The notes beneath the pieces are model-generated. The model did no database searches and was not told where the DNA came from. It saw only the letters and a program-made list of their open reading frames with translations. Positions 12,231 through 59,957 of a stretch of DNA of 64,000 nucleotides are shown in pieces. Both the position numbers and the translations under genes were made by a program. The stretch spans positions 145,022 through 209,021 of the forward strand of contig CAWKIA010000040.1 in NCBI GenBank assembly GCA_963849635.1, in the 5' to 3' direction. The stretch is from an uncultured Chloroflexia bacterium. Lineage in GTDB: Bacteria > Chloroflexota > Chloroflexia > Thermomicrobiales > UBA6265. How positions within the stretch are numbered: the first letter of the stretch is position 1; every line of letters starts with the position of its first letter.

Positions 12231-12239
12231 TGCGCGCCC

Positions 12240-17952: not shown

Positions 17953-18010
17953 TTTCGTTCTCACGCCCCTCAAGCGTATCCGCCAAGGCGAGATACATGC
18001 TTCGCCCTGC

Positions 18011-18047: not shown

Positions 18048-18124
18048 ATTCCGGCTCACCGCGGGCATAGAGTCGAATTCACACTCGATGCCGTGAGGCA
18101 AGATCCAATTCGAGGGAGACAGGT

Positions 18125-18409: not shown

Positions 18410-18445
18410 CTCGCCGCGCATCGACGTCTCATCTGGAGGAGTTTC

Positions 18446-19300: not shown

Positions 19301-19343
19301 CTTGGCTGAGATGACCGTTCTAGCCGGGTGAGGAGTCACATTC

Positions 19344-20193: not shown

Positions 20194-20297
20194 GACGTAG
20201 CTACGACGGTGGTGACCGCTCGCTGCCGCCGTTGACGCGAGGCGGGCCAGATCGCCACGTGGCCGACAGCCCGCATTCCGACTAGCCGGCCCTGAGG

Positions 20298-42244: not shown

Positions 42245-42451
42245 GGGGCGGGGTAACGCGTTGTCTGACTTGACCAGGTCTGAACGATCCGCTGCGGGTG
42301 GACCTGGCCATCAACGACTTCGTATGGACAGACGTGGGCGATTGCCGGTGGATCCGATACTCGATGCTATCATCCCTGAGTGAGGACTTCCCGGACCCGA
42401 GAGTTAGGCACCGCAGACGCGCAGCCGTCCCGAGACGTAGGAGAGGCGCCG

Positions 42452-43000
42452 ATGGTCGCCACCCATCCAAAGACCAGAGAAGATCTCGACCGGCTGGGCG
42501 CTGCTGGCGAGCGGAAGGAGCTCATCGACGGGGAACTGCGGGAGAAGGCCGCGGTGAGCCAGCGGCACGGAGAGATCGAGATTCAACTGACGATCCCCCT
42601 TGGCTCGCACGTCTTGTCCAATGGGCTCGGCCGCATTTATCCCTCCGACACGCAGTTCACCGTGGCGCGCGATCCTGACACAGTGCTGATCCCGGACTTG
42701 GCGTTCGTGCGTGCCGACCGCGTGCCGCCGGAAGCAGATCGCTGGCACATCGCCCCATTTGCCCCAGATCTCGCCGTCGAGGTCATTTCTCCGAGCGACC
42801 GCTACGTCGAGGTGATGGAAAAGATCGAGCGATATGGACGAGCTGGAGTGCCGCTGGTCTGGCTGGTCGATCCCCGCCGCCGGGTGGTCGAGGTCCATGC
42901 GGCGGGCCGGCCGCCGATCACGCTGCACGAGTCCGAGACTCTGGACGGTGGTGAGGTGCTGCCCGGGTTCGCGCTCTTGGTGGCGGAAATCTTTCGCTAG
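42452..43000 (+). CDS. Uma2 (DUF820) family endonuclease-like protein
   Basis: ATG at 42452 follows TAGGAGAGG. The sequence KELIDGELREKAAVSQRHGEIE...PDLAFV...APDLAVEVISPSD...YGRAGVPLVWLVDP fits the Uma2/PD-(D/E)xK pattern. Confidence 0.75.
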   Translation: MVATHPKTREDLDRLGAAGERKELIDGELREKAAVSQRHGEIEIQLTIPLGSHVLSNGLGRIYPSDTQFTVARDPDTVLIPDLAFVRADRVPPEADRWHIAPFAPDLAVEVISPSDRYVEVMEKIERYGRAGVPLVWLVDPRRRVVEVHAAGRPPITLHESETLDGGEVLPGFALLVAEIFR

Positions 43001-43121
43001 CTCTGCAGGTCTCGTTCCCGGCTCTTCGCGCGGACTGCAATAATCACCCGGCCAGCGGGATCGTGCGCGTTCCATTTGGGACATGCGTCAGGGTCTTCGC
43101 GATGTGTTCGGGGAGGGTCGG

Positions 43122-44262
43122 GTGAAGATCGTCGAGGTGCGTACACATTTCGTCGACCAGTTCCTGTTCGTGACGGTCCATACCGATGCCGGGATGGTCG
43201 GTACCGGCGAATCGGGGGCGTGGGGCTTTCTGGAGGCCTCCGGCAAGGCCGTGGAGACCTTCGCGCGCTACCTCATCGGCCAGGACCCGCTCCTGATCGA
43301 GCACCACTGGCAGTACCTTTACCGCTGGACCCACTTCCGCGGTGCCGCCATCATGGGCGCGCTCTCGGCGATCGACATCGCGCTGTGGGATATCGCCGGC
43401 AAGCACTATGGCGTGCCGGTCTACAAACTCCTCGGCGGGCCGACCCGCGACAAGGCCCGCGTCTACACCCACGTCTTCGGCCAGACGCGGGAGGAACTCG
43501 TCCAGGGTTGCATCGAGGCGAAGGCGCAAGGTTTCACCGCCATCGGCCACCTGACGCCCTTCACTGATTCTCCCCGGAACGAGCCCTACTTCAAGACGCA
43601 CGCCGCCAAGATGGGCGACGCGATCGAGACGGTGCGCCAGTACCGCGAGGCCGTCGGCGATGACGTCGACCTGTGCATCGAGATCCACCGCCAGCTGACG
43701 CCCGCCGAGGCGGTGGTGCTGGCCCGGGGCATCGAGCCCTACCACCCCTTCTTCTACGAGGACCCGATCCTGCCGGACAACTTCGACGCCATGGGGCTGG
43801 TGGCCCAGCAGATCCACATCCCGATCGCCACCGGCGAGCGGCTGCACACCATCTTCGAGTTCGAGATGCTCCTGGCGCGGGGAGCGGTGCAGTACGTGCG
43901 CCCCGACGTCTGCATGTGCGGCGGGATCAGCGGCGCCAAGAAGATCGCGGCGCTGGCCGAGGCCCGCCACGTCGAGGTCGTGCCCCACAACCCGCTCGGG
44001 CCGGTGAGCACGGCTGCCTGCCTGCAGATCGCCGCCGCCATCCCGAATTTTGCCCTGCAGGAGTACCCGCTGGGCGAACTCGTGCCGCCCAAGAGCGAGA
44101 TCGTCTCCCGGCCGCTCTCCCTGCGAGGCCGGCTTCCTGGCGATCCCGCAGGAGCCGGGCATCGGCATCGACCTGGCCGAGGACGCCGCCGAGCGCTTCC
44201 CGTTCCGGCCGCGCGAGGTGGTCACCCGCCTCAAGACCGACGGTTCGGTCATGGACCAGTAG
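43122..44262 (+). pseudogene. Enolase-superfamily dehydratase (galactonate/mannonate dehydratase-like), frameshifted near 3' end
   Basis: GTG at 43122 (VKIVEVRTHFV) follows GGGAGGG. It contains AIDIALWDIAGKHYGVPVYKLLGG and IEDP-like motifs. The frame changes at about 44118-44126: ..SRPLSL then EAGFLAIPQEPGIGIDLAEDAAERFPF..DQ* continues in ORF 44050..44262. Confidence 0.75.
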
Positions 44263-44551
44263 GAAACACCAGAACGGCGCGAAACTACCTGTCGAGGAGA
44301 TGAGACTGCTGAGTCGCGTGAGCCCGCATAGCGCGCGTGGCTTTCGCCTGCCTCTCACGCCTCACGATGAGGCAACATGCCATAGGGCGTTGTCCATTTC
44401 GCTAAAACGTTGGTGCGATATTCGCATATGGGTTCGTTGCCACATGGCGAGAATGAACCAAAATCTCCGAACTGTTGACGAATATCGCGGGCGCTGATAG
44501 GCTGCAGCCATCGCACCGGTGGACCACATTCTTCACGGCCAAGAGGTTTCT

Positions 44552-45356
44552 ATGTGGCGTAGCGACGCAGCGTGCACGGTTGCCCTCACGTTCGACTTCG
44601 ACGCCGAGTCCGTCTGGTTGGGATCGTTCAAGCTGGACAGGCCCTCCGCCCTCTCCCGCGGCGCCTACGGCGCCTTCGAGGGGGTCCCCCGCATCCTCAA
44701 GTTGCTCGAGAAACATGGGCTGCCCGCTACTTTCTTCATTCCCGGCGACACCGCCGACCGCCATCCGACCGTCGTCCGCGACATCGTCGCTGGTGGCTAC
44801 GAGGTCGGGCACCATGGGTACTTGCACGAGCCGCCGCACCTCCTCGAGCCCCAGGAGGAGCGCGACATCATGGAGCGCGGCCTCGAAGCCCTGGCCCGCC
44901 ACGGGGTGACGCCCACCGGCTACCGCTCACCCTCCTGGGAACTCTCCAAGGCCATCCATGCCACTGCTGGAGGAGTACGGTTTCCGCTACGACTCGAGCA
45001 TGCTCGCCCGCGATACTCCCTACTGGGTTGATGTCGATGGCCGGGTGACCGACATCGTCGAGATCCCCTCGGCCTGGGAGCTGACCGACTCCGCCCACTT
45101 TCTCTTCGCCCCCAGCGCCGGCATCATCGGCCTCAGCGCGCCATCGAAGGTCGAAGAGATCTGGCGCGGGGATTTTGATGGCTCCCTTGCCGATGGCGGC
45201 GTCTTCGTCTTGACCCTTCATCCCCAGATCATCGGGCGCCACCACCGCATGCGCCTGCTCGACCGCACCATCCAGTACATCCGGGCCCACGACGGCGTTC
45301 GCTTCGTGCAGATGCACGAGATCGCGGAGTCCTTCCGCGCGCAGAAGGAGGCATAA
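44552..45356 (+). pseudogene. Polysaccharide deacetylase (CE4) family protein, one frameshift
   Basis: MWRSDAACTVALTFDFDAES..., with LPATFFIPGDTADRHP and GHHGYLHE. Comparison with the paralog 53232..54088 shows SKAI|MPLLEEYGF equal in length to SKATFGLLEEYGF, with one extra C at about 44954-44958. Confidence 0.75.
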
Positions 45357-45424
45357 GGCTGGGCGAATCCTCGTCTCCGCGTCCCCGCTCGTTCGCGTCC
45401 TGACTCTCTAGTAGGAGTTTCACT

Positions 45425-47072
45425 GTGGCAGAGCACCAGCCGGAATCCCAGAACGAGATCGTCCGTCACACCCTGCGCCTCGCCCGCGCGATCTCCCGCC
45501 GCGACCTGATGCGAACCGCCCTCGCCGGCTCCGCCGCCGTCGCCGCGGCGGGTGGCCTCCGTGCCGCCTCAGTAGGCGCCGCGGGCGGCAGCGGAACCCG
45601 CTCCGTTCGGGCGCTGGCCCAGGACGAGACGCCGGTCGCGGGCGGCACGCTTCTGGTCGGCGTTACCGGCCAGCCGGACACGATGGATCCGCACAAGGCG
45701 ACCATCTACACTCTCTCCAGGTCTACGACAACATCTTCAGCAAACTGATCAACATCGACCCGGAGCTGAATTACATCCCCGGCCTGGCGGCGTCCTGGAC
45801 GAATCCCAGCCCGACTGAGTACCAGTTCGAGTTGGTCCAGAACGCCGTCTTCCACAACGGCGAGCCGTTCACCGCCGCCGACGTCAAGTACACCTTCGAT
45901 CGCATTAAGGACCCCGAGACGGCCTCTCCTTCCGCGACCCTCTTCGAGTCGCTGCAATCGGTCGAGGTCCTCGGCGACTACTCAGGTGAAATTCACTCTC
46001 TCCGCGCCGTTCGGCCCGTTCCTCTCCGCGTTGGCCGGCGCGAGCCAGATCGTCAACCAGAAGGCTGTCGAGGCCGCCGATCCTGCTCGCAACCCGGTCG
46101 GTACCGGCCCCTTCAAATTCGTGGAGTGGGTCCCGGATGACCACGTCACACTCGAGCGCTGGGACCAGTACTTCAAAGACGGTAAGCCGTACCTCGACCA
46201 GATCGTCTTCCGCGGACTGCCGGTCGACGACACCCGCATGGCGGCGCTGCAGAGCGGCGAGGTCAACTGGGTCGACGCCATCCCGCTCCAGAAAGTGGCG
46301 TCCGTCAGCAGCGGCGACGAGTACAACTACTACACCGCCCCGGTCGCGGGCCTGCCAGACTTCCTGGTGATGAACTGCTCGAAGCCACCGTTCGACAACA
46401 TCAAGCTGCGTCAGGCGGTGGCCTGGGCGACCGACCGCGAGACGATCCTGCAGCTCGCCTACTCCGGTGTGGGTGAGGTCGCGAACGAGGAGATGGCGAC
46501 TGGGAGTGCCTGGCACTCCGGCCTGACCACCTACTCCGCCGCCCCGGACATCGAGAAGGCGAAGCAGCTCCTGACCGAGTCCGGCTTCGACACCTCACAG
46601 TCCATCACCTATCTGGGGCTGCCGCAATACCCCGAGCTGCTGCGCACGGGCGAGATCTTGAAGGACAACCTCTCCAAGATCGGGCTCAATATGGAGATCG
46701 AGCAGCAGGAAGTGACGGTCTGGGGCCAGAATCTCTTTGGCAAGAACTACGAGATCACCTCGGCCTATGCCGCCACCATGCTCGACCCGGACGACTTCTA
46801 TCACGGCGTCCTGTACTCGACTCGCGGGCTCCAATTACGTCGGCTATGCCAACACCGACCTCGACGCACTGGCGGATGCCGGCCGGACCGAGACCGACTT
46901 CGAGGCGCGCAAGGCGATCTACAAGCAGGCGCGGGAATAGTGAACACGGAGGTCCCGCATCACCTTCGTCCACTACGAGCTGCTCAACTACGCCACCGCG
47001 ACGAACGTGCTCGGTACCCAGATCTACCCATCGATGGAGCTCCGCTTCGAGGACGTCTGGATCAAGCCGTAG
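45425..47072 (+). pseudogene. ABC transporter substrate-binding protein family 5, multiple frameshifts
   Basis: Tat-like leader RRDLMRTALAGSAAVAAAGG. A coherent SBP is only obtained by joining frames at about 45715-45721, 45984-45988 and 46826-46828. A compensated pair of indels brackets in-frame TAG TGA at 46938-46943. The C-terminus ...ELRFEDVWIKP* ends at 47072. Confidence 0.8.
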
Positions 47073-47137
47073 GGATTCCTTTCCGCCGCAGGGAGCGCCG
47101 GACTAACGGCGCTCCCGCGCGAAACCTCGGAGCGCAC

Positions 47138-48087
47138 GTGGGCATCCTGTTCTTTATCGTCAAACGCATCCTGATCGCCGTGCCGGTCCTGATCGGCATG
47201 TCGATTCTCGTGTTCAGCCTGATCCATCTGGTACCCGGCGATCCCGCTCTGGTCATGCTGGGCCTGACCGCAACCCCCGAAAATGCGCCACCCTTCACAA
47301 ACAACTCAATCTCGACGATCCCCTCTGGCAGCAGTACCTGACCTGGCTGTGGGCCGTTCTCCACGGGGATCTGGGTACCGATTACCGCTCCCATGAACCG
47401 TTGACCGAAATGCTGCTTAGCCGGTTGCCGGTCACTCTGGAGTTGACGCTCCTGGCGAGCGTTTTGTCGATCCTGATCGGGGTGCCGCTGGGCGTCCTCG
47501 GCGCGGTCCGGCGAAAAGGGCCGGCGGATGTCGCCGGCACCGCCGTCTCCCTGGTTGGAATCTCGGTGCCGGACTTCTGGCTCGGTGTCCTCCTCGTCCT
47601 GCTGGTCTCGCTCAAACTCGATTGGCTGCCCCCGTCGGGTTACAGACCGATCTCGGAGGGTCTCGTCGACAATCTGCGCTACATGATCTTGCCCGCGCCT
47701 ACGTTGGCCATCTCGATGGCTAGCGTGCTCCTGCGCACCACCCGAGCGGCGATGCTGGAGGTCCTGAGCCAGGACTACATCACGTTCACCCGGGCCAAGG
47801 GAGTGCGCGAGCGCCTCGTCATCTATAAGCACGCGCTGCGCAACGCCTCGATCCCGATCGTGACGGTCCTTGGCCTCCAGTTCGGCTTTCTTCTGGGTGG
47901 CGCCGTCATCGTCGAGTCGATCTTCAGCCTGCCTGGTATCGGCCGGATGACGCTCAATGCCGTTAACACCCGCTCGTACCCGATCATCCAGGGGGGCGTC
48001 CTCATCATCGGGGTGCTCTTCATGCTGGTGAACCTCGTCACCGATCTCCTCTACGCCGTGTTAAACCCCCGGATCCGCTATGAGTAG
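47138..48087 (+). pseudogene. ABC transporter permease (DppB-like), one frameshift
   Basis: GTG at 47138 (VGILFFIVKRILIAVPVLIGMSILVFSLIHLVPGDP). The frame changes at about 47285-47295, then continues ...LNLDDPLWQQYLTWL... into ORF 47401..48087. Confidence 0.8.
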
Positions 48088-48983
48088 CGAGATCGCGACC
48101 GCCGCCACGACGGCACCGACCGCCCCAGACTGCTCGGAAGGTGGCATGCGCCTCGATTTGCTGAGCGCGCTCCGCCGCTATCCGGCCCTGACGGTCGGGT
48201 GCATCATCATCCTGATCCTGATCGTCCTCGCCCTGGCTGCCCCGCTCATCGCGCAGGAACCACCCAACGCGATCAACGCCGACGCCGTCCTCCTGGGTGT
48301 GAGCTGGGACCATCCATTCGGCACCGACAACCTCGGGCGGGACATGTTCAGCCGCGTCCTCCACGCCTACCGGATCTCGCTCCTGATCGCCTTCGCCGCG
48401 ACCGCCGCCTCACTTGTGGTGGGAGTTCCGCTCGGGCTGATTGCCGGCTATGCCGGTGGCTGGACCGACAACGTCGATCATGCGAGTCATGGACGTCTTC
48501 TTCGCCTTCCCGACGATCCTGCTCGCCATCGCCTTGATCGCGGCCCTTGGCTCGGGCACCGGCGTCCTCGTCCTCGCGATCGGCACCATCTACGTGCCCT
48601 ACATCTCCAGAGTGGTGCGTGGGTCTAGCCTCGTCCTGAAGCAGGAACTCTTTATTGAAGGCGCTCGTGCCCGCGGAGCCGGGCCGCTCCGCCTCATGTT
48701 CCGGCACATCCTCCCCAACTGCCTCGGGGCCATCCTGGTCCAGGTCTCCCTCATGCTCGGTTTTGCAATTCTGATCGAGGCTGCACTCTCTTTCCTCGGC
48801 CTCGGCACGGCGCCGCCTGCTCCCTCGCTGGGGCGGATGCTCTCTGATGGCCGCGATTTCATGAGCGACAACCCACCCGTGGTCGTCTTCCCGGGCGCCG
48901 CGATCGCCCTGGCGGTTCTTAGTTTCAACCTCATCGGAGACGGCGTCCGCGATTGGGCGGACCCACGCCGGCGCGGGCGCTAA
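48080..48983 (+). pseudogene. ABC transporter permease (DppC-like), one frameshift
   Basis: ORF 48080..48628 (…HPFGTDNLGRDMFSRVLHAY…GYAGGWTDNV) joins ORF 48441..48983 (MRVMDVFFAFPTILLAIAL…) with an extra base at about 48474-48480. Confidence 0.8.
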
Positions 48984-48996
48984 AGGGACGAGAAAG

Positions 48997-50627
48997 ATGA
49001 GCTTCGACACCATTCTCACCAACGCGACCGTGCTGACGATGGATCCAGCCCGCCCTCGCGCCGGGGCTGTCGGGATCAAGGGCGACCGCATCGCCTGGGT
49101 CGGCGACCCCGACGACGTCGCGACGCACCTCACCGGTGTCCGCCACACGATGGACCTTGGCGGCGCCACCGTCGTCCCCGGTTTCAACGATGCCCACAAC
49201 CACCTCCTCCTGCTCGGTCACTGGCTGAGCCAGATCGATTGCTCATTCCCGACCATCCGCTCCATCTCCGAGATCGTGGCGGCCGTTGGTGCCCGCGTCG
49301 CGGAGACTCCCGAAGGGGAGTGGATCGAGGGCCGCGGGTACGACGACAACAAACTCCACGAGCACCGCCACCCGACCCGCTGGGACCTCGACGCGGTCGC
49401 TCCTCACAACCCGGTCCTGATCCGCAACGCTTCCGGCCACATGTGCGTCGTCAACAGCCGCGCCCTGGAGATCGCGGGAATCACAGCGGAGACCGAGCCG
49501 CCGTTTGGCGGGGCGATCCACATCGATCCCGCCTCGGGGGAGCCGTCCGGCCTCCTTCAGGAGATCGCCCAGAAGCTCATCCCGCTGCCGTTCATCCCCA
49601 GCGACCACGATGCCCTGCATCGCTGTCTGGACGTGGCGAGCCGTGCCTACCTCTCCGCGGGGATCACCAGCAGTCAGGAGGCCGGCATCTTCTCCACGCC
49701 GGAGTTCACCGTCTTCCAGCAGGCCTGGGAAGCGGGGACACTGCCGCTGCGGACCTACATGATGATCCGCGACCCTTTCTAGATGCCCTCGAAAAACTCG
49801 GCATCTACACCGGTTTCGGCGACGACCGTCTCCGCGTCGGCTCCTTCAAGTTGCTGGCCGACGGCTCCCTGATCGGCCGCACGGCCCTCGTCTCGGAGCC
49901 GTTCCTCGAAGATCCCCGGTCCGATAACCTCGGCCTGGCGATGATGCCCCAGGAGGAGCTGGACGATCTGATCTGGCGCGGCCACTCGGCGGGCTGGCAA
50001 GTGGCGATCCACGCGATCGGCGACCGGGGCATCGAGATGTGCCTCGACGGCTTCGAGCGCGCCCTTGCCCGCAAGCCCCGCGCCGATCACCGGCACCGGC
50101 TGGAGCATTGCGGCATCCTCCGCCCCGATCTGATCCGCCGGATCAAAGAGATGGGGGTCATCCCAGTCGGCCAGCCGCCCTTCGTCTACGAGTTCGGCGA
50201 TGGCTTCCTCCGCCACCTCGGCCGGGAGCGCAGCCAGTTGACCTACGCCCTCAAGACCGTCCTCGACGCCGGCATCCCCCTGGCGGCCAGCTCCGATTCG
50301 CCGGTCTCCTCCTTCCAGCCGCTCATCGGCATCAAGCTGGCCGTGACCGAGCGGACGGCGACCGGCACCGAATTCGCCCCGGCCGAGGCGATCTCGGTCG
50401 AGCAGGCGATTGCCCTCTACACCAGTGCCGGCGCGTTCGCCTCCTTCGACGAGCAGCGCAAAGGCACCATCACCCCCGGCAAGCTGGCCGACTTCGCGAT
50501 TCTCGGCGCGGATCCACGCACGGTCCCCGCCGACGAGATCGACCAGATCCCCGTCCTCGGCACGATCTCCGGCGGCAAGCTCGTCTACGAATCGGCGCTC
50601 TCACCGAGCGCCGCTGTTCCGGCCTGA
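48997..50627 (+). pseudogene. Amidohydrolase-3 (YtcJ-like) family metal-dependent hydrolase, one frameshift
   Basis: ORF 48997..49782 (…VVPGFNDAHNHLL…) ends at ..MIRDPF*. The next frame continues LDALEKLGIYTGFGDDRLRVGSFKLLADGS…AIHAIGD…HRLEHC…. The junction is at about 49775-49783. Confidence 0.75.
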
Positions 50628-50634
50628 GGGAGCG

Positions 50635-51615
50635 ATGAGTCTGCTTAGCGTTCGCAATCTGGCAGCCGAATATCGGGACGGCGATACCGCGGTCCGTGCC
50701 GTCGACGGGGTCTCATTCGATGTCGAGCCCGGCGAGATCGTCGGTCTGGTCGGGGAATCCGGCTGTGGCAAGACGACCGTTGGCTTCTCGCTCCTCGGTC
50801 TCCTGCCGCCCAACGCCGGGGTGGTCGGCGGCGAGGTGACCTTTGATGGGCACGATCTTCTGAATCTCAGCGATGCCGAGCGCCGCGCCCTGCGCGGCAA
50901 CCGGATCGCGATGATCTTCCAGGACCCGATGACCTCCCTCGATCCGTCGTTCACGATCGGCGACCAGCTGATGGAGCCCCTCCAGACACATCTCGGGCTC
51001 GGCCGCCAGGCGGCGCGCCAGCGCGCGATCGACCTGCTGACCCAGGTTGGGATTCCTTCTCCGGTGGAGCGGTTGCGGCGCTACCCGCACGAGTTCAGCG
51101 GAGGCATGCGCCAGAGGGTCGTGATCGCCATCGCGCTGGCCTGCGACCCGGCCCTGCTCATCTGCGACGAGCCGACTTCTGCCCTCGACGTGACGGTCCA
51201 GGCCCAGATCTTGAGCTTGCTCCGGGCGCTGAAACGCGAGCACCAGCAGACCGGCATCCTCATGATTACCCACGATCTGGGGGTCGTCGCCCAGCTCTGC
51301 CACCGGGTGGCGGTGATGTACGCCGGCCAGATCGTCGAGCAGGGCCCCGTCCGCGATGTCTTCGCCCAGCCTCGCCACCCGTACACCCGGGGTTTGCTCG
51401 GATCTCTTCCCGGTCGTGTCGCTCGCGGCGCCCCGCTCAGCCAGATCGACGGCACCGTTCCCGACCCACGGCACCTACCCAGCGGCTGCCGCTTCCACCC
51501 CAGGTGCCAGTATGCGACCGCTATCTGCCAGACTCCCCCGCCAACCCACACCGTGCACGCGCAGCAGGTCGCCTGCGTGCTCTACGACAAAGGGGCGCAG
51601 CATGTCTTTGCCTGA
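50635..51615 (+). CDS. ABC transporter ATP-binding protein (DppD/OppD-like)
   Basis: ATG at 50635. Walker A GESGCGKT, signature FSGGMRQR, Walker [13 protein letters not shown], and the oligopeptide-type C-terminal Cys motif region. The gene is intact. Confidence 0.9.
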
Positions 51616-52682
51616 GCCGGTCGTGGAGATCCGAGACCTCCGCACCTACTTCCCGGTGCCGCAAAACGTGGTCTCCCGTCTCCGCAACGGACCAACGATG
51701 GTGCGCGCGGTCGACGGTGTCAGCCTCACCGTCAACCGGGGCGAGACTGTCGGCCTGGTCGGTGAGTCCGGGCTGTGGCAAAAGCACGCTGGGCCGCTCG
51801 ATCCTGCGCCTGGTCCAACCCACGAGCGGCGATATCCGGATCGACGGGACGGATGTCGTCCGCGCCTCTGGCCCGGAATTGCGCCAGGTCCGCCGTCGCG
51901 CCCAGATCATCTTTCAGGACCCGGCGTCGTCGCTGAACCCGCGCATGACCGTCGGCCAGACCCTGAACGAACCGCTCGAGATCTATAAGATCCGCTCCCG
52001 CACCGAGCGCCGCGAGCGGGTTGAGGAACTCCTGGGGCTGGTCGGCTTGCCGCGTGGGGCCGCCGATCGATTCCCACATCAATTCAGCGGTGGTCAACGC
52101 CAGCGTGTCGGCATCGCCGCCGCTCTTGCGCTCGAACCGTCGGTGATCGTCGCCGACGAACCGACATCGGCCCTTGATGTATCGGTTCAGGCCCAAATCC
52201 TGAACCTCCTTCAGGGACTGCAGAAGTCGCTCGGGGTCGCCTACCTCTTCATCTCCCACAACCTCGATGTCGTCCGCCACCTCAGCGACCGCATCGCCGT
52301 GATGTACCTGGGCAAGATCGTCGAGAGTTCTCCGACCGAGGCGCTTTTCAAGACGCCCCTGCATCCCTACACCCGGGCGCTCCTCAGCGCGATCCCCGAT
52401 CCCGACCCGGACGCCCGCCACGAGCCCGTCCTCCTCAGCGGCGAGATCCCGAGCCCGCTCAATCCTCCCGCCGCCTGCCGGTTCCATCCCCGCTGCCCGA
52501 TCGCCCGCCCCCGTTGCGCGACGGTCGAGCCTGACCTCCTCGGTGATGAGGACGACCACCTGGTCGCCTGCCATGCGGTCGCCTGGGCCCGCGCCCGGGC
52601 GCGACCGGGAGAAAACCTCCCTGACCTGTCCGGGTGGGACGATGCACAGCCGAGCCAGGCCGAAGGGTGGGGAACCGCATGA
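51602..52682 (+). pseudogene. ABC transporter ATP-binding protein (DppF/OppF-like), one frameshift in Walker A
   Basis: [13 protein letters not shown]...[11 protein letters not shown]|[13 protein letters not shown]: the Walker A motif is split between two frames by an extra G at about 51769-51772. Downstream are FSGGQRQR and [12 protein letters not shown]. Confidence 0.85.
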
Positions 52683-53212
52683 CGTTTGAACTCGACGATA
52701 CGGACCTGAGTATCCTCGAGCTCCTCGAAGAGAACGGCCGCCGGCCGAATGTCGAGATCGCTCGCCTGCTCGGCATCGCCGAGTCGACCGTGCGCAAGCG
52801 GGTCGATCGGATGCAACAGGCCGGGGCCTTCCGGACCGTAATCGTGCCCGACTTCTCCGTGCTTGGCCTCGAAGGGCACATCATCGTCGGGGTCCACGCC
52901 GAACTTGGCGCGGCGGTCGATATCGCCGAGCAGCTTGGCGCGCTGGAGGAGGTCCGCTTCGTTGCCCTGACGACCGGCGCGTTCGACCTGATCGTCGAGG
53001 TCTACCTGCCCGCGATCAGCGACTTCCTCAGCTTTATCCAGGACGATCTCTCCCAGATCCCTGGCATCAAGGGAGTCGAGACCGCGACCGTCCTCCAACT
53101 CCCGAAGAGTCGCTACAACTGGATCAAGATGCTCCGCCGCGGCAGGGCCCGCCAGGAGTTGGCGGCTCATACGAAGAACGCTCAGGACAATTTGGCCACC
53201 CGTCGACCATAG
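52679..53212 (+). CDS. Lrp/AsnC family transcriptional regulator
   Basis: The ATG overlaps the upstream stop (ATGA). Contains LDDTDLSILELLEENGRRPNVEIARLLGIAESTVRKRVDRM plus a C-terminal RAM-like domain. Confidence 0.85.
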   Translation: MTFELDDTDLSILELLEENGRRPNVEIARLLGIAESTVRKRVDRMQQAGAFRTVIVPDFSVLGLEGHIIVGVHAELGAAVDIAEQLGALEEVRFVALTTGAFDLIVEVYLPAISDFLSFIQDDLSQIPGIKGVETATVLQLPKSRYNWIKMLRRGRARQELAAHTKNAQDNLATRRP

Positions 53213-53231
53213 CTCCAACGGAGGACCCTCG

Positions 53232-54088
53232 ATGCCAGGAATGCCAGGAATGCCAGGACGCCAAGAACTGCTGCCGACCGCCGCGTCGCGGTCTCGCTCA
53301 CCTTCGACTTCGACGCCGAATCGGCCTGGCTGGGTGCCTTCAAGGTCGACACCCCGTCTGCCCTTTCCCGGGGAGCCTACGGCGCGAACGAGGGCGTGCC
53401 TCGTATCCTGCGCCTGCTTGAGAAGTACAGCCTACCCGCGACCTTCTTCATCCCCGGCGATACCTGCGACCGCCATCCCGACGTGGTCCGCGCCATCGCG
53501 GCCGCCGGCCACGAGATCGGCCACCACGGCTACCTCCACGAGGCCCCCCACCTACTCAACCCCGAGGAAGAGCGGTCGATGATCGAGCGTGGCCTCGACG
53601 CGATCGACCGCATTACAGGAACCAAACCCCTTGGCTACCGCTCGCCGTCCTGGGAACTCTCAAAGGCGACATTCGGCCTTCTGGAGGAGTACGGCTTTGA
53701 CTACGACGCCAGCCAGCTCGCCCGGGATCGGCCCTACTGGGTCGAGGACGACGGCCGCAAGACGGACATGGTCGAGGTCCCGTCCGCCTGGGAGCTTTGT
53801 GACTCCGCCCATTTCCTCTTCGCCTACAACCCCGTCTACCTGATGGGGATGAGCGGCCCATCGAAGGTCGAAGAGATCTGGCGCGAGGACTTCAACGGGA
53901 TCTACGAGGAGGGCGGCGACGGCTGCTACGTCCTGACGATGCACCCCCAGATCATTGGCCGCCACCACCGCATGCAGATGGTGGAGCGGACCATCGACCA
54001 CATCCTCGCGCACGACGGCGTCTGGTTCGCCCAGATGAAGGACATCGCCCAGGATTTCCGGCAGCGGGCCGCCGCGAATGCCGCCTAG
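53232..54088 (+). pseudogene. Polysaccharide deacetylase (CE4) family protein, N-terminal frameshift
   Basis: The only start codons (ATGCCAGGA x3) are in a frame offset by one from the deacetylase frame (RVAVSLTFDFDAESAWL…PATFFIPGDTCDRHP…GHHGYLHE), and that frame has no start before the GTG at 53396. An indel is inferred at about 53262-53275. Confidence 0.75.
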
Positions 54089-54266
54089 TACCCTGTGCAG
54101 AGGCATCTGTCTCATTGGATCGAGGAACGATGCCGCTCCGATCCTTCCTGTCATTCCGAGCTTGTCGAGGAATCTCGAAGGGCGAGTTGAGACAAGGAAG
54201 CCCCGACCTTCGAGAATATGGTGCCGTGCTCTCGAAAACCCCGGCACGATCGTCGCGCCTTCCCCG

Positions 54267-55330
54267 CTAAGCAGGTCGAGGTAAGTTGATCGTTGGTTGG
54301 GCGAGGCGGCGGGCGCGGGTGGTGAGGGCGGTCTCGACGGCGGCTTGGAGGGCGATGTCGGTCGGGTGGCTGCGCTCGGGGAGGTCCTGGTGCTTGGTGT
54401 GGCGCCAGACGGGCTCGATCGGGTTGAGCTCGGGGCTGTAGGGTGGGAGGAAGCAGAAGTGGACATCGGCGGCGGCGAGGCTGGGGAGGTTGTCCTTGAC
54501 GGCTTGGCTGTGGTGGACCGCATAGTTGTCCAGCACGACCACGCACGGGCGCGATCGCCGCTTGGCGCCCTCTCCGGCCAGGCGGCGGACGAAGGCGAGG
54601 TGGGCGGCTGCATCGGAGCGTCCCTCGGCTTGGCGCCGGGTCTCGTAGACGAGCCGCGGGCCGGCCGGGTCGTAGGGGGCGAGGGCGCCCACGACGTTGA
54701 CCCGCCGGCCTTGGGGCGCTTCGTGCGGCACGACCAGGCGGCGCCCCAAGCGGCCCCAGCCATAGCCGGTTGGCAGGGTCGGGCAGAAGCCGCTCTGGTC
54801 GAGGAACCATAGGTCGATCACGCCGGTCACGCGCTTTTTTTGAGGCCATCGAGTTCGACCACTTTGGCGTCGTACCCCTCCGGGTCGCGTCGTTTGTGGG
54901 CCAGCGAGGTGACGGTGCGCTTCCAGCCGAAGCGGCGGGCGTGGAGCAGGCGACTGAGGTGGTCGGGGTGAACCTGGACCCCGCGCTCGTGCGCCAGCCA
55001 GGTCACGAATTGGGCGGTCGTCCAGGTCCGCCCGCCGGCGTCCAGCAGGGTTTCGAGGGCATCGAGGTGCGCTGCGGTGACGGTGGGTGGGCGCCCGGGG
55101 CGGGGCCGGTCGGGGAGGGCGGCGAAGCCGTCCGCTAGGAAGGCTTTGATGTACTTGCGGACCGTCTGCTCGTGAGCGCCGAGGTGGCGGGCGATGCGCG
55201 GCACCGTCCAGCCAGCGTCGGCGAGGCGCACCATCTCCAGGCGGTCGCGGGTGCGCTGCGCGAGCCCGGGTTCGCGGGTGCGAGCGCGCAGCTCGTCGTG
55301 CTGGGCAGCGGTCAGCGCGATGCGGATCAC
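54267..55330 (-). CDS. IS630-family DDE transposase (orfA HTH + orfB catalytic, joined at an A7G slippery run)
   Basis: orfA (55330..54827) begins MIRIALTAAQHDELRARTREPG… and ends …ELDGLKKSA*. orfB continues KKRVTGVIDLWFLDQSGF … VVVLDNYAVHHS … LPPYSPELNPIEPVW (D, D, E). The frames are joined by -1 at CTC AAA AAA AGC (T-run 54835-54841 on the plus strand). Confidence 0.85.
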
Positions 55331-55382
55331 GGCGGGGCACCTCCTCGCCCACCATGCTACGACCTACTTACCGCGACCTGCT
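54270..55382 (-). mobile_element. IS630-family insertion sequence
   Basis: The terminal inverted repeats are 54270-54292 AGCAGGTCGAGGTAAGTTGATCG and the reverse complement of 55360-55382, AGCAGGTCGCGGTAAGTAGGTCG (19/23). They enclose a DDE transposase. A TA lies on the left flank only, so the target duplication is not clear. Confidence 0.85.
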
Positions 55383-55497
55383 CAGATCCCTCGACATGCT
55401 CGGGATGACAGGGGATGCCGGGGCGTCAGCTCAGCACTCCCAGACGGGCAAATGTACCTGCACGGGGAAATAGTGATGCGCTAGACGGGTGATCCCA

Positions 55498-56727
55498 TCA
55501 GATGAGATCGGAGCTGCTCCCTGGCTCTTGCGGAGTGTGATAGACGCCATCGCGGACATTGGCCGGGTGCAGGAACCGGTCGCGCAGGTGGGGAATGTGC
55601 TCGAGGAAGATGGCGTCGTGTCCCAGCGCGATGTGGTTGAAGAGGACCAGGTGCTGGTGGATCTGGCCCATATCTCCCACGTGGGGCACGACCGGAAGAC
55701 CGAACTTGCGGGCGAGCAGGCTGACCGTGATGAACTCACTGACCCCGCCGACGCGAGTGCAGTCGACCTGGATGAATCTGGCGGCGTCGAGTTGCATGTA
55801 GTTCTTGAAGAGCACCCGGTTCGGGACGTGCTCGCCGATCGCGATCGCCAGCGGCGCGATCTCCCGCGCCAGCGTGTGATGGGCCATCACGTCGTCTGGG
55901 TGCGTCGGCTCCTCGATCCAGTAGGGAGACATCGCCGCCAGATCGTGGCAGGCCCGAATCGCCTCCGGCAGATTCCAGTGCTGATTGCAATCGAGCATGA
56001 TCGGAATGTCGTCGCCGGCCAGTTCGCGGAGCAGGTGTGCCCGGCGGATATCGCGCGCCGGGTCGTCTGAGCCGACCTTGAGCTTCATGGCGCGGAATCC
56101 GGCCGCAAGAGCGTTGCGCACGTTCTCGCCCAGGCGCTCGTCGCTGTAGTTGAACCAGCCAATCGAGGTGTCGTAGCTAGGGTAGCCGGTGGCCAGCACC
56201 GCCTCGCGTGTGGCCCGGGAGGCCTGGTGCTCGGTCAGGAGGTCGCGTGCATCAACGGCGGTCAGGACATCTTCCAGGAAGCTGAGATCGAGCAGCGCGA
56301 CGACCTGATCGGGCGAGAGGTCAAGCAGAAGCTGCCAGAGCGGGACGCCGCGCGCCTTGGCCCACAGGTCGAAGCAGGCGTTGGTGATCGAAGCGAGCGC
56401 GAGGTGGACCACGCCCTTGTGTGGTCCGAGCCAGCGCAGTTGGGGGTGGTTGGCTATCCGGTTGAAGGTGGCGCCGAAGTCCGCCATCACCTCCTCGATA
56501 TCGCGACCGATGAGCGGGCTGCCAAGTTGCTCGATCGCCGCGCAGACCAGTTCGTTGCCGCCGCCAAGGGTCAGCACCAGGCCAGTTCCGGTGCCCCGGT
56601 TTGAGGTCAGATTGGTGACGGCGAACGAGTACTGGGGATCGGAGTGATGGGAATCCGACCCTGCCCCATCGGGGAGATCGTACCGGGCATCGCGGGTTGT
56701 CAGGCGCTCGATGAAACAGGAGGTCAT
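55498..56727 (-). CDS. fucD: L-fuconate dehydratase-like enolase-superfamily enzyme
   Basis: 409 aa, collinear from memory with FucD/ENOSF1: DARYDLPDGAGSDSHHSDPQYSFA, QLRWLGPHKGVVHLA, GYPSYDTSIGWFNYSDE, FRAMKLKVG, MLDCNQHWN, WIEEPTHPDD, GEHVPNRVLFKN, IQVDCTRVGGVSE. Confidence 0.8.
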   Translation of the reverse strand: MTSCFIERLTTRDARYDLPDGAGSDSHHSDPQYSFAVTNLTSNRGTGTGLVLTLGGGNELVCAAIEQLGSPLIGRDIEEVMADFGATFNRIANHPQLRWLGPHKGVVHLALASITNACFDLWAKARGVPLWQLLLDLSPDQVVALLDLSFLEDVLTAVDARDLLTEHQASRATREAVLATGYPSYDTSIGWFNYSDERLGENVRNALAAGFRAMKLKVGSDDPARDIRRAHLLRELAGDDIPIMLDCNQHWNLPEAIRACHDLAAMSPYWIEEPTHPDDVMAHHTLAREIAPLAIAIGEHVPNRVLFKNYMQLDAARFIQVDCTRVGGVSEFITVSLLARKFGLPVVPHVGDMGQIHQHLVLFNHIALGHDAIFLEHIPHLRDRFLHPANVRDGVYHTPQEPGSSSDLI

Positions 56728-56772
56728 GCAGGAATCCTTGCTCGTGCCCAGGTATCGTCAAGCTGATCCCGG

Positions 56773-57201
56773 TCAGGACCGGCTGGTCGGCCACAGTCCA
56801 GCGCGCCGCCGGTGGCAGGTGAGGTAGGCGAACCGTTCCGCGTACGCCCGGATGCTCCGGCGAGTGCCTTTCGGCACCATGACCGCCTGTCCCGCCGCGA
56901 GCGGATGGGGTTGCCCTTCGATCGTGACGATGCCCGCTCCCGCGATGCCGATGAGCAGGACGTCGAGTTCGTGGTTGAAGTGCTCCTCCACCCCCTCACC
57001 CATGTTGAACACGAGCAGGTTGAGGTCAAGGTCTTCGCTCCGCAGCGTCCACGCGGGGCCCCGTCCGGCGGCCGACCGGGCAATGGCCGCCAGGTCGGCC
57101 GCCACACCCGGGCCAGGTTCTGCCGCATCGGCATCGAGATCATCGAACAGGTGTGCCCAACATGGCGGGTCGCCGCCACAGGGCTCGTCCGTTATGGCCA
57201 C
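56773..57201 (-). CDS. Cupin-domain protein
   Basis: GTG at 57201 follows GAGGAGGG. The C-terminal half GEGVEEHFNHELDVLLIGIAGAGIVTIEGQPHPLAAGQAVMVPKGTRRSI is cupin-like. Confidence 0.55.
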   Translation of the reverse strand: MAITDEPCGGDPPCWAHLFDDLDADAAEPGPGVAADLAAIARSAAGRGPAWTLRSEDLDLNLLVFNMGEGVEEHFNHELDVLLIGIAGAGIVTIEGQPHPLAAGQAVMVPKGTRRSIRAYAERFAYLTCHRRRAGLWPTSRS

Positions 57202-57347
57202 ATGGCCCTCCTCGGATCCCGCGCTACGCGTGGTACGTGCCGCCGATGCTACCGCATCTGGGTTGGGCGCGGATCGTGGCGCCTGGGCACAGGGGTGCAT
57301 CAGGTAGATCGGCCGGTATGAGGGAAGTTAGACGTTTCTTGGGTGCG

Positions 57348-57764
57348 CTACGCGTCCTGTCGCTCGAAGCGGCCGGAGACCTCGCGCGGGCGGATCCGAA
57401 ACACGACGACGCGGTTGCCGTGGTTGAGGTTGCGGGATACGAGGCCGGACCCGCTGGGGACAAGCCAGGCCAATGCCGCCTGCCGGTCCCGGTTCGCAAC
57501 CATCTCTTCGTACTGGCCGTGAGCGACGACGCTCTTCCATGTCGACGGACCGGCGATCTCATCGACCAGGAAGCAGACGTTGGGTTGGCGGCGCATCACG
57601 TCGATCTTATGACCGGCGCCGCTGAAGGCGTAGATAAACGTCCCGTCGTATGCGTAGTTGATCGGCACGATGTAGGGCTGGTCGTCGACCGTGCAGGCAA
57701 GCCGCCCAATCTGGTGCGTGCGCAGAACCTTGTCGATCTCGTCGGGACTAAGCGTTCCGATCAT
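57348..57764 (-). CDS. Pyridoxamine 5'-phosphate oxidase-like FMN-binding protein
   Basis: MIGTLSPDEIDKVLRTHQIGRLACTVDDQPYIVPINYAYDGTFIYAFS… is typical of the split-barrel PNPOx-related family. Confidence 0.75.
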   Translation of the reverse strand: MIGTLSPDEIDKVLRTHQIGRLACTVDDQPYIVPINYAYDGTFIYAFSGAGHKIDVMRRQPNVCFLVDEIAGPSTWKSVVAHGQYEEMVANRDRQAALAWLVPSGSGLVSRNLNHGNRVVVFRIRPREVSGRFERQDA

Positions 57765-58055
57765 GCCTGGGTCACCTGTTCCTTGGCGGTACTTCTGGTC
57801 GCGATTCCGCCAGCGTACCGGTGCGCCGGTTGCAGGGGCATGAACTCCAGGACCGGGGCGTTGCAAAGTCGTATCAAAACGGGCTCATTCCCAGGTCTGG
57901 GAGCGAAGGCCCTCCGTCAGATTGTGTGATTTGTCACGAAGTTGTAACGCTTGGATGATCATCCGGTGCGCGGTTTTGACGGCTCCTCAAGCACCATCTC
58001 TTCAGACAATTTCGGACCCCGAGCGGGGTCCATCGGTGCTCGAGAGGAGCAAAGG

Positions 58056-59171
58056 ATGAACGTGGGGACGCGCACCGCGATGAACCGGCGCGGATTTGTC
58101 GGCCTGCTGGGGCTTGCCGGGGTCGGCACCGTCGGGACGGCATTTGCACCAGAACACATCGGCCACGCCGCCGAGATCGAAGCGGCCCAGACCGTCGCCG
58201 AGTCAGCCGTCGTAACTGATGTGCATGCCGGCCACGAGCAGATGTCTGCTCAAACAACCACGACCAACGCCGCCACCAACGCCACGCAAGACATGACCGT
58301 CGACGAGATGGACGCCATGCACGACGCCAGCGTCAAGGCCTTCCCGGCGGCGACCGAAGGGCTCGGTGGCCAGCCGCTTGAGTTCGTCATGGACGGCGAC
58401 GTCAAGGTCTTCGAGCTGACCTGCCAGCTCGCCCAGTGGGAGGTTACGCCGGGTCAGCGCGTCGAGGCCTGGACCTACAACGGCGTCGTGCCCGGTCCCG
58501 AGATCCGCGTCACCGAGGGTGACACGATCCGGGTGCTGGTCCACAACGAGTTGCCCCAGAGCACGGCGGTCCACTGGCACGGGTTGATGGTCCCGAATGC
58601 GATGGACGGGGTGCCCGGCATCACCCAGCCGCCGATCAAGCCAGGGGAGACCTTCACCTACGAGTTTCCGATCCGGGACGGCAACGCCGGCACGCACATG
58701 TACCACGCCCACTACAACAGCGCCGAGCAGGTGGTGAAGGGCATGCTGGGCGCGTTCATCGTCGAGCCCAAGGACCCGGCGACCCGCCCGGCCTTCGACC
58801 GCGAGTACACGATCGTGCTCAACGACGGCCCGATCGGCGGGTTCAGCCTCAACGGCAAGAGCTTCCCCGCCACCCAGCCCCTGGTGGCGAAGAAGGGCGA
58901 GCGCGTCCTGATCCGCTACATGAACGAGGGCATGATGATCCACCCGATGCACCTGCACGGGATGCCGATGCAAGTCATCGCCCAGGACGGCTACCTCCTG
59001 CCCCAGTTCTACACCTGCGACACCCTCAACATCGCCCCCGGCCAGCGGTTCGAGACGATCGTGGACGCGACGGAACCCGGGACCTGGGCCTTCCACTGCC
59101 ACATCCTCACCCACGCCGAGAGCGACCACGGCATGTACGGCATGGTGACCGCCCTCGTCGTCGAGGAGTAG
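58056..59171 (+). CDS. Two-domain-size multicopper oxidase with Tat signal
   Basis: ATG at 58056 follows GAGAGGAG. Tat leader MNRRGFVGLLGLAG. Copper motifs appear in order: HWHG, YHAHY, HPMHLHG, HCHILTHAESDHGMYGM. At ~371 aa it is too short for a three-domain MCO. Confidence 0.8.
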   Translation: MNVGTRTAMNRRGFVGLLGLAGVGTVGTAFAPEHIGHAAEIEAAQTVAESAVVTDVHAGHEQMSAQTTTTNAATNATQDMTVDEMDAMHDASVKAFPAATEGLGGQPLEFVMDGDVKVFELTCQLAQWEVTPGQRVEAWTYNGVVPGPEIRVTEGDTIRVLVHNELPQSTAVHWHGLMVPNAMDGVPGITQPPIKPGETFTYEFPIRDGNAGTHMYHAHYNSAEQVVKGMLGAFIVEPKDPATRPAFDREYTIVLNDGPIGGFSLNGKSFPATQPLVAKKGERVLIRYMNEGMMIHPMHLHGMPMQVIAQDGYLLPQFYTCDTLNIAPGQRFETIVDATEPGTWAFHCHILTHAESDHGMYGMVTALVVEE

Positions 59172-59251
59172 GCGCTCGTTCCGTGGATACGCGCAGGGCC
59201 GTCGGGCCGGCGGGATGCTCTGCCGCCGCCGCCCTCCGAAAGAAGGTCAAC

Positions 59252-59767
59252 ATGTTTCACCGGATCGTGGTCCCGCTTGATGGCTCTGCGCTGGCGGAAC
59301 GGGCGCTGGAGTGGGCGACGGATCTCGCGCGCGTTGCCAATGTCCCTATCCACCTCGTCCGCGTGATCGACCTGGGAAGGATCGACGGTGGAGCGTCGCT
59401 CGTATGGGGCCTCTCCCCCTGGGCGCTCGAGCGCGCGCTCGATGAGGAGCAGCGGGCGGCGTTGGACTCCCTTGAGCGGACAAGACAGCGGCTCAAGGAT
59501 CAGGGCGTGCAGGCGTTCGCGGAGGTGCGGCACGGCAGGGCGCCAGACGAAATCGTGGCGTCGGTCACGGAGGACGATCTGGTCGTCATGTCGACCCACG
59601 GGCGCGGCGGCCTACCCCGCTGGTTCCTGGGAAGCGTCGCCGAGTCCGTCGCGCGGCACGCGCCGGGGCCAGTCATGCTGATCAGGGCGTTGCCGGCTGA
59701 GAAAGCCGAGACTGCGGTTGGGAGCGAGGAATCCGCCCGGGTTGGCGAGATGGCCGTCGTCTCTTAG
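59252..59767 (+). CDS. Universal stress protein (UspA family)
   Basis: MFHRIVVPLDGSALAERALEWA…, with the C-terminal ATP-binding-type motif STHGRGGLPRWFLGSVAESVARHAPGPVMLI. Confidence 0.8.
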   Translation: MFHRIVVPLDGSALAERALEWATDLARVANVPIHLVRVIDLGRIDGGASLVWGLSPWALERALDEEQRAALDSLERTRQRLKDQGVQAFAEVRHGRAPDEIVASVTEDDLVVMSTHGRGGLPRWFLGSVAESVARHAPGPVMLIRALPAEKAETAVGSEESARVGEMAVVS

Positions 59768-59957
59768 CTGCCTGAACGCATGCAGCCTCGCGCCGGGATC
59801 GGGAGATCCAAGCGTCAACCCGGCCCCGTGGTCATCGATCGCCCAGCCGGGTCCGACGGACGTCAGGTCACGTACCGCTGTGAGCAAAGGCGAATGGGTC
59901 CCCATGGTGGTGACCCATTCGCCGTTTGCCCAATTCGTTCATGGAAGGATCATACCA

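Follow-up and report, generated by a model that had tools for sequence, protein, structure and literature searches.

Clustered single-nucleotide frameshifts in an accessory Dpp-type operon of a Thermomicrobiales genome are most likely an assembly artifact

An accessory transport operon and an IS630 element

The window, i.e. the whole 64,000-nt stretch of DNA that was analyzed, comes from the genome of an uncultured Thermomicrobiales bacterium, is part of a 227,030-bp contig recorded at NCBI and ENA, and contains a block of ten genes followed by an insertion sequence (Table 1). A single operon encodes a solute-binding protein (SBP) with an SBP_bac_5 domain, two BPD_transp_1 permeases, and two ATPases with ABC_tran and oligo_HPY domains. 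By this domain content, the transporter is a predicted Dpp/Opp-type peptide/nickel ABC importer, with a putative substrate. Together with two deacetylases, an amidohydrolase, an AsnC regulator and the IS630 element, it makes up an accessory island. A threefold tandem ATGCCAGGA repeat (53232-53258) lies ahead of deacetylase 2. The 451-aa fusion ORF that joins SBP and permease sequence in the window is identical to protein P0030 of a public collection; exact-match look-ups with this ORF and with ATPase 1 returned no record.

The insertion sequence has the features of the IS630 family: it is ∼1.1 kb long, sits at a TA target and is bounded by inverted repeats, and its DDE_3 transposase carries an HTH at the N terminus. 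The terminal inverted repeats (54268-54287 and 55366-55385) match at 18 of 20 positions; of the two target copies, the right one is CA instead of TA. In L042, a contig of a sister strain, the site is empty (CTCTA/GATCC), which shows that the element is a discrete insertion. An A7 run (54835-54841) divides the HTH frame from the DDE_3 frame; the related contig L039 has A8 here, and the frames are fused. An HMM frame switch at 54.8 kb reflects this two-frame transposase and was rejected as an operon-type frameshift.

Table 1. Features of the operon block and accessory island, in window coordinates
Feature	Coordinates	Strand	Remarks
MR/MLE-family dehydratase	43122..44262	+	Pfam MR_MLE_N + MR_MLE_C; +1 frameshift near 44123-44130
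Accessory island (operon + IS630 element)	44264..55501	.	Absent from L043, partly deleted in L042
Polysaccharide deacetylase 1 (CE4-like)	44552..45356	+	+1 frameshift 44952-44957
Family-5 solute-binding protein (SBP, SBP_bac_5)	45425..47072	+	Five 1-nt events
ABC permease 1 (DppB-like)	47138..48087	+	-1 frameshift 47285-47286
ABC permease 2 (DppC-like)	48080..48983	+	+1 frameshift 48474-48479
Amidohydro_3-family amidohydrolase	48997..50627	+	-1 frameshift 49772-49775
ABC ATPase 1 (DppD-like)	50635..51615	+	Intact
ABC ATPase 2 (DppF-like)	51602..52682	+	+1 frameshift 51770-51773 inside Walker A motif GESGCGKS
AsnC/Lrp-family regulator	52679..53212	+	Intact
Polysaccharide deacetylase 2	53250..54088	+	Probable -1 frameshift at ~53265
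IS630-family insertion sequence	54270..55384	-	Pfam DDE_3 + HTH_32/HTH_29; TA target

Single-nucleotide frameshifts interrupt eight of the ten genes

Frameshifts were called by frameshift-aware protein-to-DNA alignment, with the intact orthologues of two Thermomicrobiales metagenome-assembled genomes (MAGs), L001 and L002, as references. The dehydratase falls outside the operon synteny of L001 and L002, and its frame was checked against a Geminicoccaceae MR/MLE protein. Twelve ±1-nt frameshifts, seven insertions and five deletions, were found between 44.1 and 53.3 kb in eight of the ten genes. This bears out a sequence-only reading of the same DNA, which had reported 1-nt frameshifts in eight genes at positions within a few bases of ours, and had listed only the DppD-like ATPase and the AsnC regulator as intact. 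A codon-usage Viterbi model, which detects frame switches independently of orthologue alignment, recovered 11 of the 12 events.

The events in the SBP comprise -1 at 45710-45712, +1 at 45982-45985, +1 at 46816-46826, -1 at 46935-46937 and +1 at 46958-46961. The last two compensate each other, and uncorrected read-through meets a TAG. In the dehydratase, the Geminicoccaceae homologue aligns in frame 3 over 43122-44069 and in frame 1 over 44131-44259, with the final 43 residues in frame 1; codon usage puts the switch at 44122/44123. The probable deletion in deacetylase 2 was placed from a conserved ATG (53250) and from frame 2, which offers no start codon. Walker A of ATPase 2 is among the catalytic motifs interrupted.

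At all 12 sites, conservation to the orthologue amino acids picks up at the next codon. Once the frames are corrected, the block genes contain no nonsense codons, no in-frame stops and no lesions longer than 1 nt. Lesions of ±1 nt only, with the coding signal immediately restored in the new frame, are a mark of artifact. The sequence-only reading had placed most events in short homopolymer runs, but this did not hold up: only ∼2 of the 9 events that can be resolved against L039 are changes in homopolymer length. Inspection of sequence context revealed no consistent methylation-type motif (e.g. GATC or CCGG) at the indel sites, a few of which touch GATC or CCGG.

The frameshifts cluster within the window

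Of the 17 frameshifts in the window, 12 belong to the block, which makes up 17% of its length (binomial P = 1.7e-6); this count is also far from expectation given the rate outside the block (Poisson P = 1.2e-9). The cluster has sharp boundaries, and the adjoining blocks (33.5-43 kb and 55.4-60.4 kb) are free of frameshifts. Clean surroundings had been claimed before; this is true of these neighbors but not of the window as a whole, which has five further frameshifts (∼19418, 19671, 19834, 31714 and 60492). The genes hit are otherwise well conserved, and one of them (19344-20193) holds the first three events. HMM frame switches at 10.2-12.4 kb were rejected as frameshifts, as two intact genes (SDR and a DUF4432 protein) lie there.

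The island varies among relatives, and its indels vary among assemblies

With the exception of the dehydratase event, every frameshift of the block sits inside the island. In L043, which is without the island, window position 44263 is joined directly to 55502. L042, whose right flank is 98.5% identical to the window, has undergone a 9.5-kb deletion (44305-53844) at microhomology. Given this deletion, the operon is dispensable in the lineage. Several versions of the island, 83–96% identical, are known in related populations. A megablast search of the block against a plasmid collection returned no close relative (best match, 7% coverage and 74% identity).

The contig L039, from an ENA metagenome and named in the Flye style, is recorded under a different assembly accession than the window and is 95.5% identical to it over 42273-55382. 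Here the island forms a separate 13-kb contig, which extends from window position 42273 to 55382, where the IS has its outer end. Alignment of L039 with the window opens 99 gaps over these 13.1 kb, nearly all of 1 nt. For contrast, we used L040, a short-read contig of similar divergence from the window (95.9% identity), which aligns to 1,525 nt of the window's right-flank sequence without a gap. Past window position 55488, L040 ends in a 52-nt tail that has no match in the window or L039; this marks a synteny break and leaves the alternative junction undefined.

Comparison with the orthologous locus had been proposed as a check. All nine genes from deacetylase 1 through deacetylase 2 are intact in L001 and L002, and these orthologues are in frame at every aligned frameshift site. 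Nine of the 12 sites are in frame in L039, which has 13 frameshifts and one stop of its own elsewhere. Without the window's extra bases, its deacetylase 1 (which lacks the extra C) and permease 2 are intact genes of 267 and 301 aa, respectively. The T missing from permease 1 in the window is present in L039, as is the C missing from the amidohydrolase, although the latter gene has a deletion of its own at window position 49528. Four of the five SBP sites are in frame, and the fifth differs by 2 nt. The sole event common to both contigs, 1 of the 12, is the +1 at 51771 in the Walker A motif of ATPase 2. In L041, a contig from a third sample, 46 frameshifts lie within 5.5 kb of the same operon, with flanking genes intact; its corrected SBP is 78% identical to that of L001. 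Contigs of relatives under neighboring ERZ accession numbers bear Flye-style names, and those with such accessions have split genes in conserved flanks as well. Thus, near-identical DNA in independent assemblies carries different sets of indels while L001 and L002 are intact, again as in an artifact.

The genes are under strong purifying selection

A comparison of 3,074 codons between the window and L039 yields 195 synonymous and 43 nonsynonymous substitutions (dS = 0.089, dN = 0.0063, dN/dS = 0.07). Neutral evolution would leave so few nonsynonymous changes with a probability of 6e-75. Values of dN/dS for individual genes range from 0.04 to 0.15, and lineage-specific amino-acid changes are symmetric (23 versus 25), with no excess in the window lineage. 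The block genes are therefore under strong purifying selection. In ATPase 2, 25 synonymous and 4 nonsynonymous differences were counted (dN/dS 0.05; neutral probability 2e-11), from which it follows that this gene has not been a pseudogene since the common ancestor of the window and L039. On these grounds, we rejected the Walker A frameshift as the trace of an ancestral pseudogene.

Origin of the frameshifts

The frameshift cluster is most likely an assembly artifact and not gene decay. More specifically, we hold it very probable that the frameshifts of the window are indel errors, rather than mutations, of a noisy long-read consensus with low coverage or mixed strains. Its probable source is a long-read MAG, for which we infer a platform that was probably Nanopore-only, with assembly by Flye. 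The window's consensus would carry a background of ∼0.1 single-base indels per kb. Over the island, the consensus may be backed by fewer reads or by reads of mixed haplotype, so that the polisher would leave ∼1.1 indels per kb there; the clustering would then result from this. Published workflows that run Flye and Medaka on Nanopore reads alone are acknowledged to leave coverage-dependent indel errors (PMC9262707, PMC12313526).

The sequence-only reading had argued that uniform sequencing error does not explain the clustering. The cluster is real, but the error is itself non-uniform and tracks the island. Clustering is no obstacle to consensus error, because the cluster coincides with an island that is absent or deleted in relatives and noisy in two other long-read-style contigs. 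As to the two options left by that reading, our data support a low-quality assembly stretch and oppose inactivation of the operon, given the dN/dS of 0.07 and the differing indel sets.

Some observations count against consensus error. The Walker A insertion is common to the window and L039, and a systematic error would be needed at that site. Insertions outnumber deletions in the block (7 versus 5), while Nanopore consensus is usually deletion-biased. Finally, the operon is truly deleted in the sister strain L042.

This last observation implies dispensability and so raises the prior for genuine decay, i.e. for very recent pseudogenization in which a dispensable transport/catabolic operon beside an IS is accumulating 1-nt indels. 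Consistent with such decay are the complete absence of the operon from L043, the adjoining IS630 element, the sharp bounds of the cluster and the shared frameshift at 51771. Nevertheless, we consider it unlikely. The dN/dS values, overall and in ATPase 2, are incompatible with an appreciable neutral period; the window lineage has no surplus of amino-acid changes, and neither nonsense codons nor lesions beyond 1 nt are seen. Spontaneous bacterial indels concentrate in homopolymers and simple repeats, whereas most of those in the block lie outside such tracts. Moreover, three assemblies would have to gain non-overlapping sets of 12, 13 and 46 frameshifts independently.

A mixture, in which consensus errors make up most of the events but an operon starting to be lost has also acquired a few real lesions, strikes us as very unlikely. 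The candidate real lesions are the Walker A +1, which occurs in two contigs with different assembly accessions, and the A7 run of the IS630 transposase, where the A7 versus A8 difference falls at a classic slippage run, which could also be a programmed -1 site. A recurrent, context-specific basecalling error accounts for the shared event equally well, and the substitution pattern of ATPase 2 in the very contigs that share it speaks against a real lesion. Similarly improbable is that all indels are real. Several co-existing Thermomicrobiales strains would then be losing a dispensable accessory operon in parallel, too recently for substitutions to register, by a mutational process with a local bias toward indels, such as error-prone repair synthesis or recombination near the island and its IS. 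Programmed recoding, by ribosomal frameshifting or transcriptional slippage, can be given next to no credence, as nothing favors it for the operon genes (a likeness to a known slippery site is limited to the A7 run of the IS630 element), the L001 and L002 orthologues keep their frame at all sites, shifts occur in both directions, catalytic motifs such as Walker A are interrupted, and inspection of sequence context found no common slippery motif at the sites.

Apart from the consensus errors proposed here, the underlying biology is ordinary: an accessory Dpp-type operon that varies in presence between relatives, one of which has a 9.5-kb deletion in it, and an IS630 element that inserted recently. 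Taken as biology, the block would add eight pseudogenes and the loss of a transport/catabolic pathway to the record of this genome, inflating pseudogene counts and distorting its metabolic reconstruction. Because indel errors of long-read MAGs can cluster strongly in strain-variable accessory islands, clustering alone is no evidence for real decay.

Comparison with known systems

Operon decay is known from bacteria with many pseudogenes, such as Mycobacterium leprae, Salmonella Typhi and Shigella. Where decay is genuine, selection is relaxed, nonsense mutations and larger deletions appear, and isolates have lesions in common. As in these bacteria, adjacent genes of one dispensable pathway are hit next to an IS, and the locus has been lost by deletion from a sister strain. 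However, relaxed selection, nonsense mutations and larger deletions are absent from the block, and a single lesion of 12 is shared with L039.

Apparent frameshifts can also arise when divergent haplotypes are collapsed into one consensus, as outlined for Trypanosoma brucei in an account of allele-specific assembly (PMC8445201). Going by that outline, the likeness lies in the several versions (83–96% identical) of the noisy segment and in several window insertions that resemble two alleles placed end to end. Position 48474 reads GTCG in the window, GTG in the orthologues and GCG in L039; at 46958, the respective sequences are CATC, CTG and ATC. Unlike that diploid genome, the setting here is a metagenome of prokaryotes, and haplotype mixing among the window's reads is a candidate cause.

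Nanopore assemblies and MAGs are known to contain indel-induced false pseudogenes, and our point of comparison is the IDEEL-type truncated-protein test (Sereika et al. 2022, PMC9262707; proovframe preprint 10.1101/2021.08.23.457338). Such false pseudogenes depend on coverage, a dependence that probably holds for the window too. Unlike them, the window's indels are mostly outside long homopolymers and are clustered in one strain-variable island rather than evenly spread. In both cases, single-base indels split conserved genes, their positions differ between independent assemblies, and accurate-read assemblies of relatives are free of them.

Gene content and frameshifts of the operon

The ten-gene operon-like block at 43122-54088 lies in a window of ~66% G+C, and its nearest relatives in a one-genome-per-species scan are Thermomicrobiales MAGs. 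Two of these, L001 (OZ244595.1) and L002 (CAXTHM010000034.1), are syntenic with window 44551-54075 at ~77% nucleotide identity. The sequence-only reading had proposed a comparison with the orthologous locus in relatives; all nine genes from deacetylase 1 through deacetylase 2 are intact in both. We placed frameshifts by tblastn and frameshift-aware protein-to-DNA alignment, using L001 and L002 proteins as queries. The dehydratase has no orthologue within this synteny, and its event was placed because a Geminicoccaceae homologue changes from frame 3 (43122-44069) to frame 1 (44131-44259).

The alignments bear out the earlier claim of frameshifts in eight of ten genes, with twelve single-base events, each within a few bases of the position first estimated. 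ATPase 1 (DppD-like) and the AsnC regulator, which had been judged intact, are indeed in frame. Independently, a Viterbi model of codon usage, trained on window sequence, found 11 of the 12 events. The two deacetylase genes (44577-45337 and 53289-54060) are paralogues, 74-78% identical in nucleotide sequence, that flank the operon as direct repeats ~8.7 kb apart.

Features of the block and of the adjoining insertion sequence (+1, base extra, and -1, base missing, relative to the orthologous frame)
Feature	Position	Strand	Event or remark
MR/MLE-family dehydratase	near 44123-44130	+	+1, Geminicoccaceae homologue alignment
Polysaccharide deacetylase (deacetylase 1)	44952-44957	+	+1
Family-5 solute-binding protein (SBP)	45710-45712	+	-1
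SBP	45982-45985	+	+1
SBP	46816-46826	+	+1
SBP	46935-46937	+	-1
SBP	46958-46961	+	+1
Dpp-type permease 1	47285-47286	+	-1
Dpp-type permease 2	48474-48479	+	+1
Amidohydro_3 amidohydrolase	49772-49775	+	-1
ABC ATPase 1, oligo_HPY tail	block	+	
ABC ATPase 2, oligo_HPY tail	51770-51773	+	+1, Walker A
AsnC regulator	block	+	
Second deacetylase (deacetylase 2)	about 53265	+	-1, probable
IS630-family insertion sequence, ~1.1 kb	54270-55384	-	18/20 terminal inverted repeats, TA target

Clustering within the window

Neighbouring blocks had been described as clean. This is true of the adjacent 33.5-43 kb and 55.4-60.4 kb, where each model segment lies in a single ORF and Pfam domains are full-length, but not of the window as a whole, which carries further frameshifts at 19344-20193 (three), 31714 and 60492. 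The event rate is 1.1 per kb in the block versus 0.09 per kb elsewhere in the window (binomial P = 1.7e-6; Poisson P = 1.2e-9), and the clustering is real.

The gene at 19344-20193 forms a second, small error cluster (about 19413-19423, 19670-19673 and 19833-19836), with all three junctions spanned by homologues of 260-290 aa. Its product is predicted to be secreted, Cys-rich and ~280 aa long, with a twin-arginine-like N-terminal SRRLSRRRAL; a Pfam search with it gave no match. A +1 at 31714 breaks the gene for an NB-ARC/AAA + TPR + LuxR (GerE) regulator (30970-33412) into two ORFs (split 31713/31715). The gene of a DsbA-like thioredoxin is interrupted at 60491/60493, and its joined parts give a full Thioredoxin_4 match (model 5-165 of 165). 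Within 59718-61220 its reading frame changes at 60492 from 3 to 1, with a stop near 60720 and a VKOR-domain ORF downstream in frame 3; the 500-aa ORF of the raw sequence there is an artefactual read-through.

The cluster coincides with an accessory island

The frameshift cluster coincides with an island that varies between strains (44264-55501) and comprises the operon and the IS630 element. In the related contig L043 (ERZ25039530, about 89%), window 44263 abuts 55502 directly. L043 is without the island, a Uma2 gene and the 33.4-40.9 kb ABC/peptidase block (window junctions 33414/40947, 42248/43035 and 44263/55502), so several adjacent segments of the region are accessory. L042 (ERZ25039531) is 98.5% identical to window 55384-60219, its alignment ending near the split thioredoxin gene. 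Its path runs 54269-53845 and then skips to 44304, a 9.5-kb operon deletion between short microhomologies (CTACCTG...GATGAG; window junction 44304/53845; L042 segments 11343-11767 and 11759-12964); of the operon only the 3' end of deacetylase 2, its last ~80 codons, remains. L039, a stand-alone 13-kb contig, spans window 42273 to 55382, the latter being the outer IS end. The indel-bearing segment is therefore present only in some strains, in several versions 83-96% identical.

GC skew is ~-0.1 over 44000-54000, compared with ~0 across 34-42 kb, the adjacent + strand operon. The IS630 site is empty in L042, exactly at the position of the window element. Within the element, an A7 run (54835-54841) lies between HTH and DDE_3 reading frames in a -1 relation; L039 has A8 and the frames are fused. 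The A7 run may be a site of slippage or reflect a miscalled homopolymer.

Lesions differ between copies of the operon

When the frame-corrected SBP was searched against proteins, two matches were informative: the 451-aa SBP-permease fusion ORF of the window itself (P0030), which lies on a 227,030-bp contig (NCBI/ENA), and a 98%-identical protein (P0012) encoded on L039, a 13,061-bp ENA metagenome contig (ERZ25039504 contig_90297). The alignment of this contig to window 42273-55382 shows 95.5% identity (467 mismatches, 99 gap openings). L039 stays in frame at nine of the twelve event sites, differs by 2 nt at 46816, and has lesions of its own elsewhere (thirteen frameshifts, mostly deletions, and one stop). 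Only the Walker A +1 is common to both. That insertion (TCC GGGC TGT) is identical at window 51770-51773 and L039 9491-9494, in different assembly accessions and despite purifying selection on the gene; a systematic basecalling error tied to this sequence context may account for it. Where deacetylase 2 starts (53232-53258), ATGCCAGGA occurs three times in tandem, encoding Met-Pro-Gly, and this region is ~11 nt shorter in L039.

The operon is also present on a third contig, L041 (ERZ25039516, about 83-89% identical), where 5.5 kb of it (15463-20386) contains 46 frameshifts, 40 of them +1; once corrected, the L041 SBP retains 78% identity to that of L001. The flanking genes of L041 are intact, as are deacetylase 1 and the upstream flank; a DDE_Tnp_1 transposase separates the MR/MLE gene from deacetylase 1. 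L040, a short-read-style contig 95.9% identical to the window and about as diverged as L039, aligns to 1,525 nt of right flank with zero gaps.

Selection on the operon genes

We compared the window with L039 codon by codon in corrected frames (3,074 codons) and found 195 synonymous and 43 nonsynonymous differences (dS = 0.089, dN = 0.0063, dN/dS = 0.07; single genes, 0 to 0.15). Neutral evolution would yield so few nonsynonymous changes with a probability of 6e-75. In ATPase 2, the gene with the shared frameshift, there are 25 synonymous and 4 nonsynonymous differences (P = 2e-11). Amino-acid changes are symmetric (23 window-specific, 25 L039-specific), and the corrected window has zero in-frame stops. 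The operon genes have therefore been under strong purifying selection for nearly the whole time since the two copies separated.

Two or three independent sets of at least a dozen fixed frameshifts are incompatible with such selection, which makes genuine pseudogenisation of the operon improbable, even though the operon is dispensable, since L042 has deleted it, an IS element adjoins it, one frameshift is common to the window and L039, and the window's indels show no deletion bias (seven insertions, five deletions). Genuine spontaneous bacterial indels concentrate in homopolymers and simple repeats. The impression that most events sit in short homopolymer runs did not hold against L039: only a minority of the window's indels change the length of such a run or of a simple repeat, which also counts against pseudogenisation. 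A mixture of errors and a few real lesions is more improbable still, and programmed recoding is excluded for these genes, since at each event site the orthologues keep the frame.

The block frameshifts are most likely errors of a long-read consensus, concentrated in the accessory, strain-variable island; they do not represent a new biological feature. Read support over the island may have been lower or mixed in the window's sample, and the polished consensus would have retained more indels there because of it. Consistent with low or mixed support, the operon is the noisy section of L041, a contig otherwise good, and the window insertions at 48474 and 46958 resemble two alleles in tandem. Split genes on contigs with neighbouring ERZ accession numbers, even in conserved flanks, are also consistent with such support. 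Residual, coverage-dependent indel errors are documented for Nanopore-only pipelines combining Flye with one Medaka round (PMC12313526; PMC9262707).
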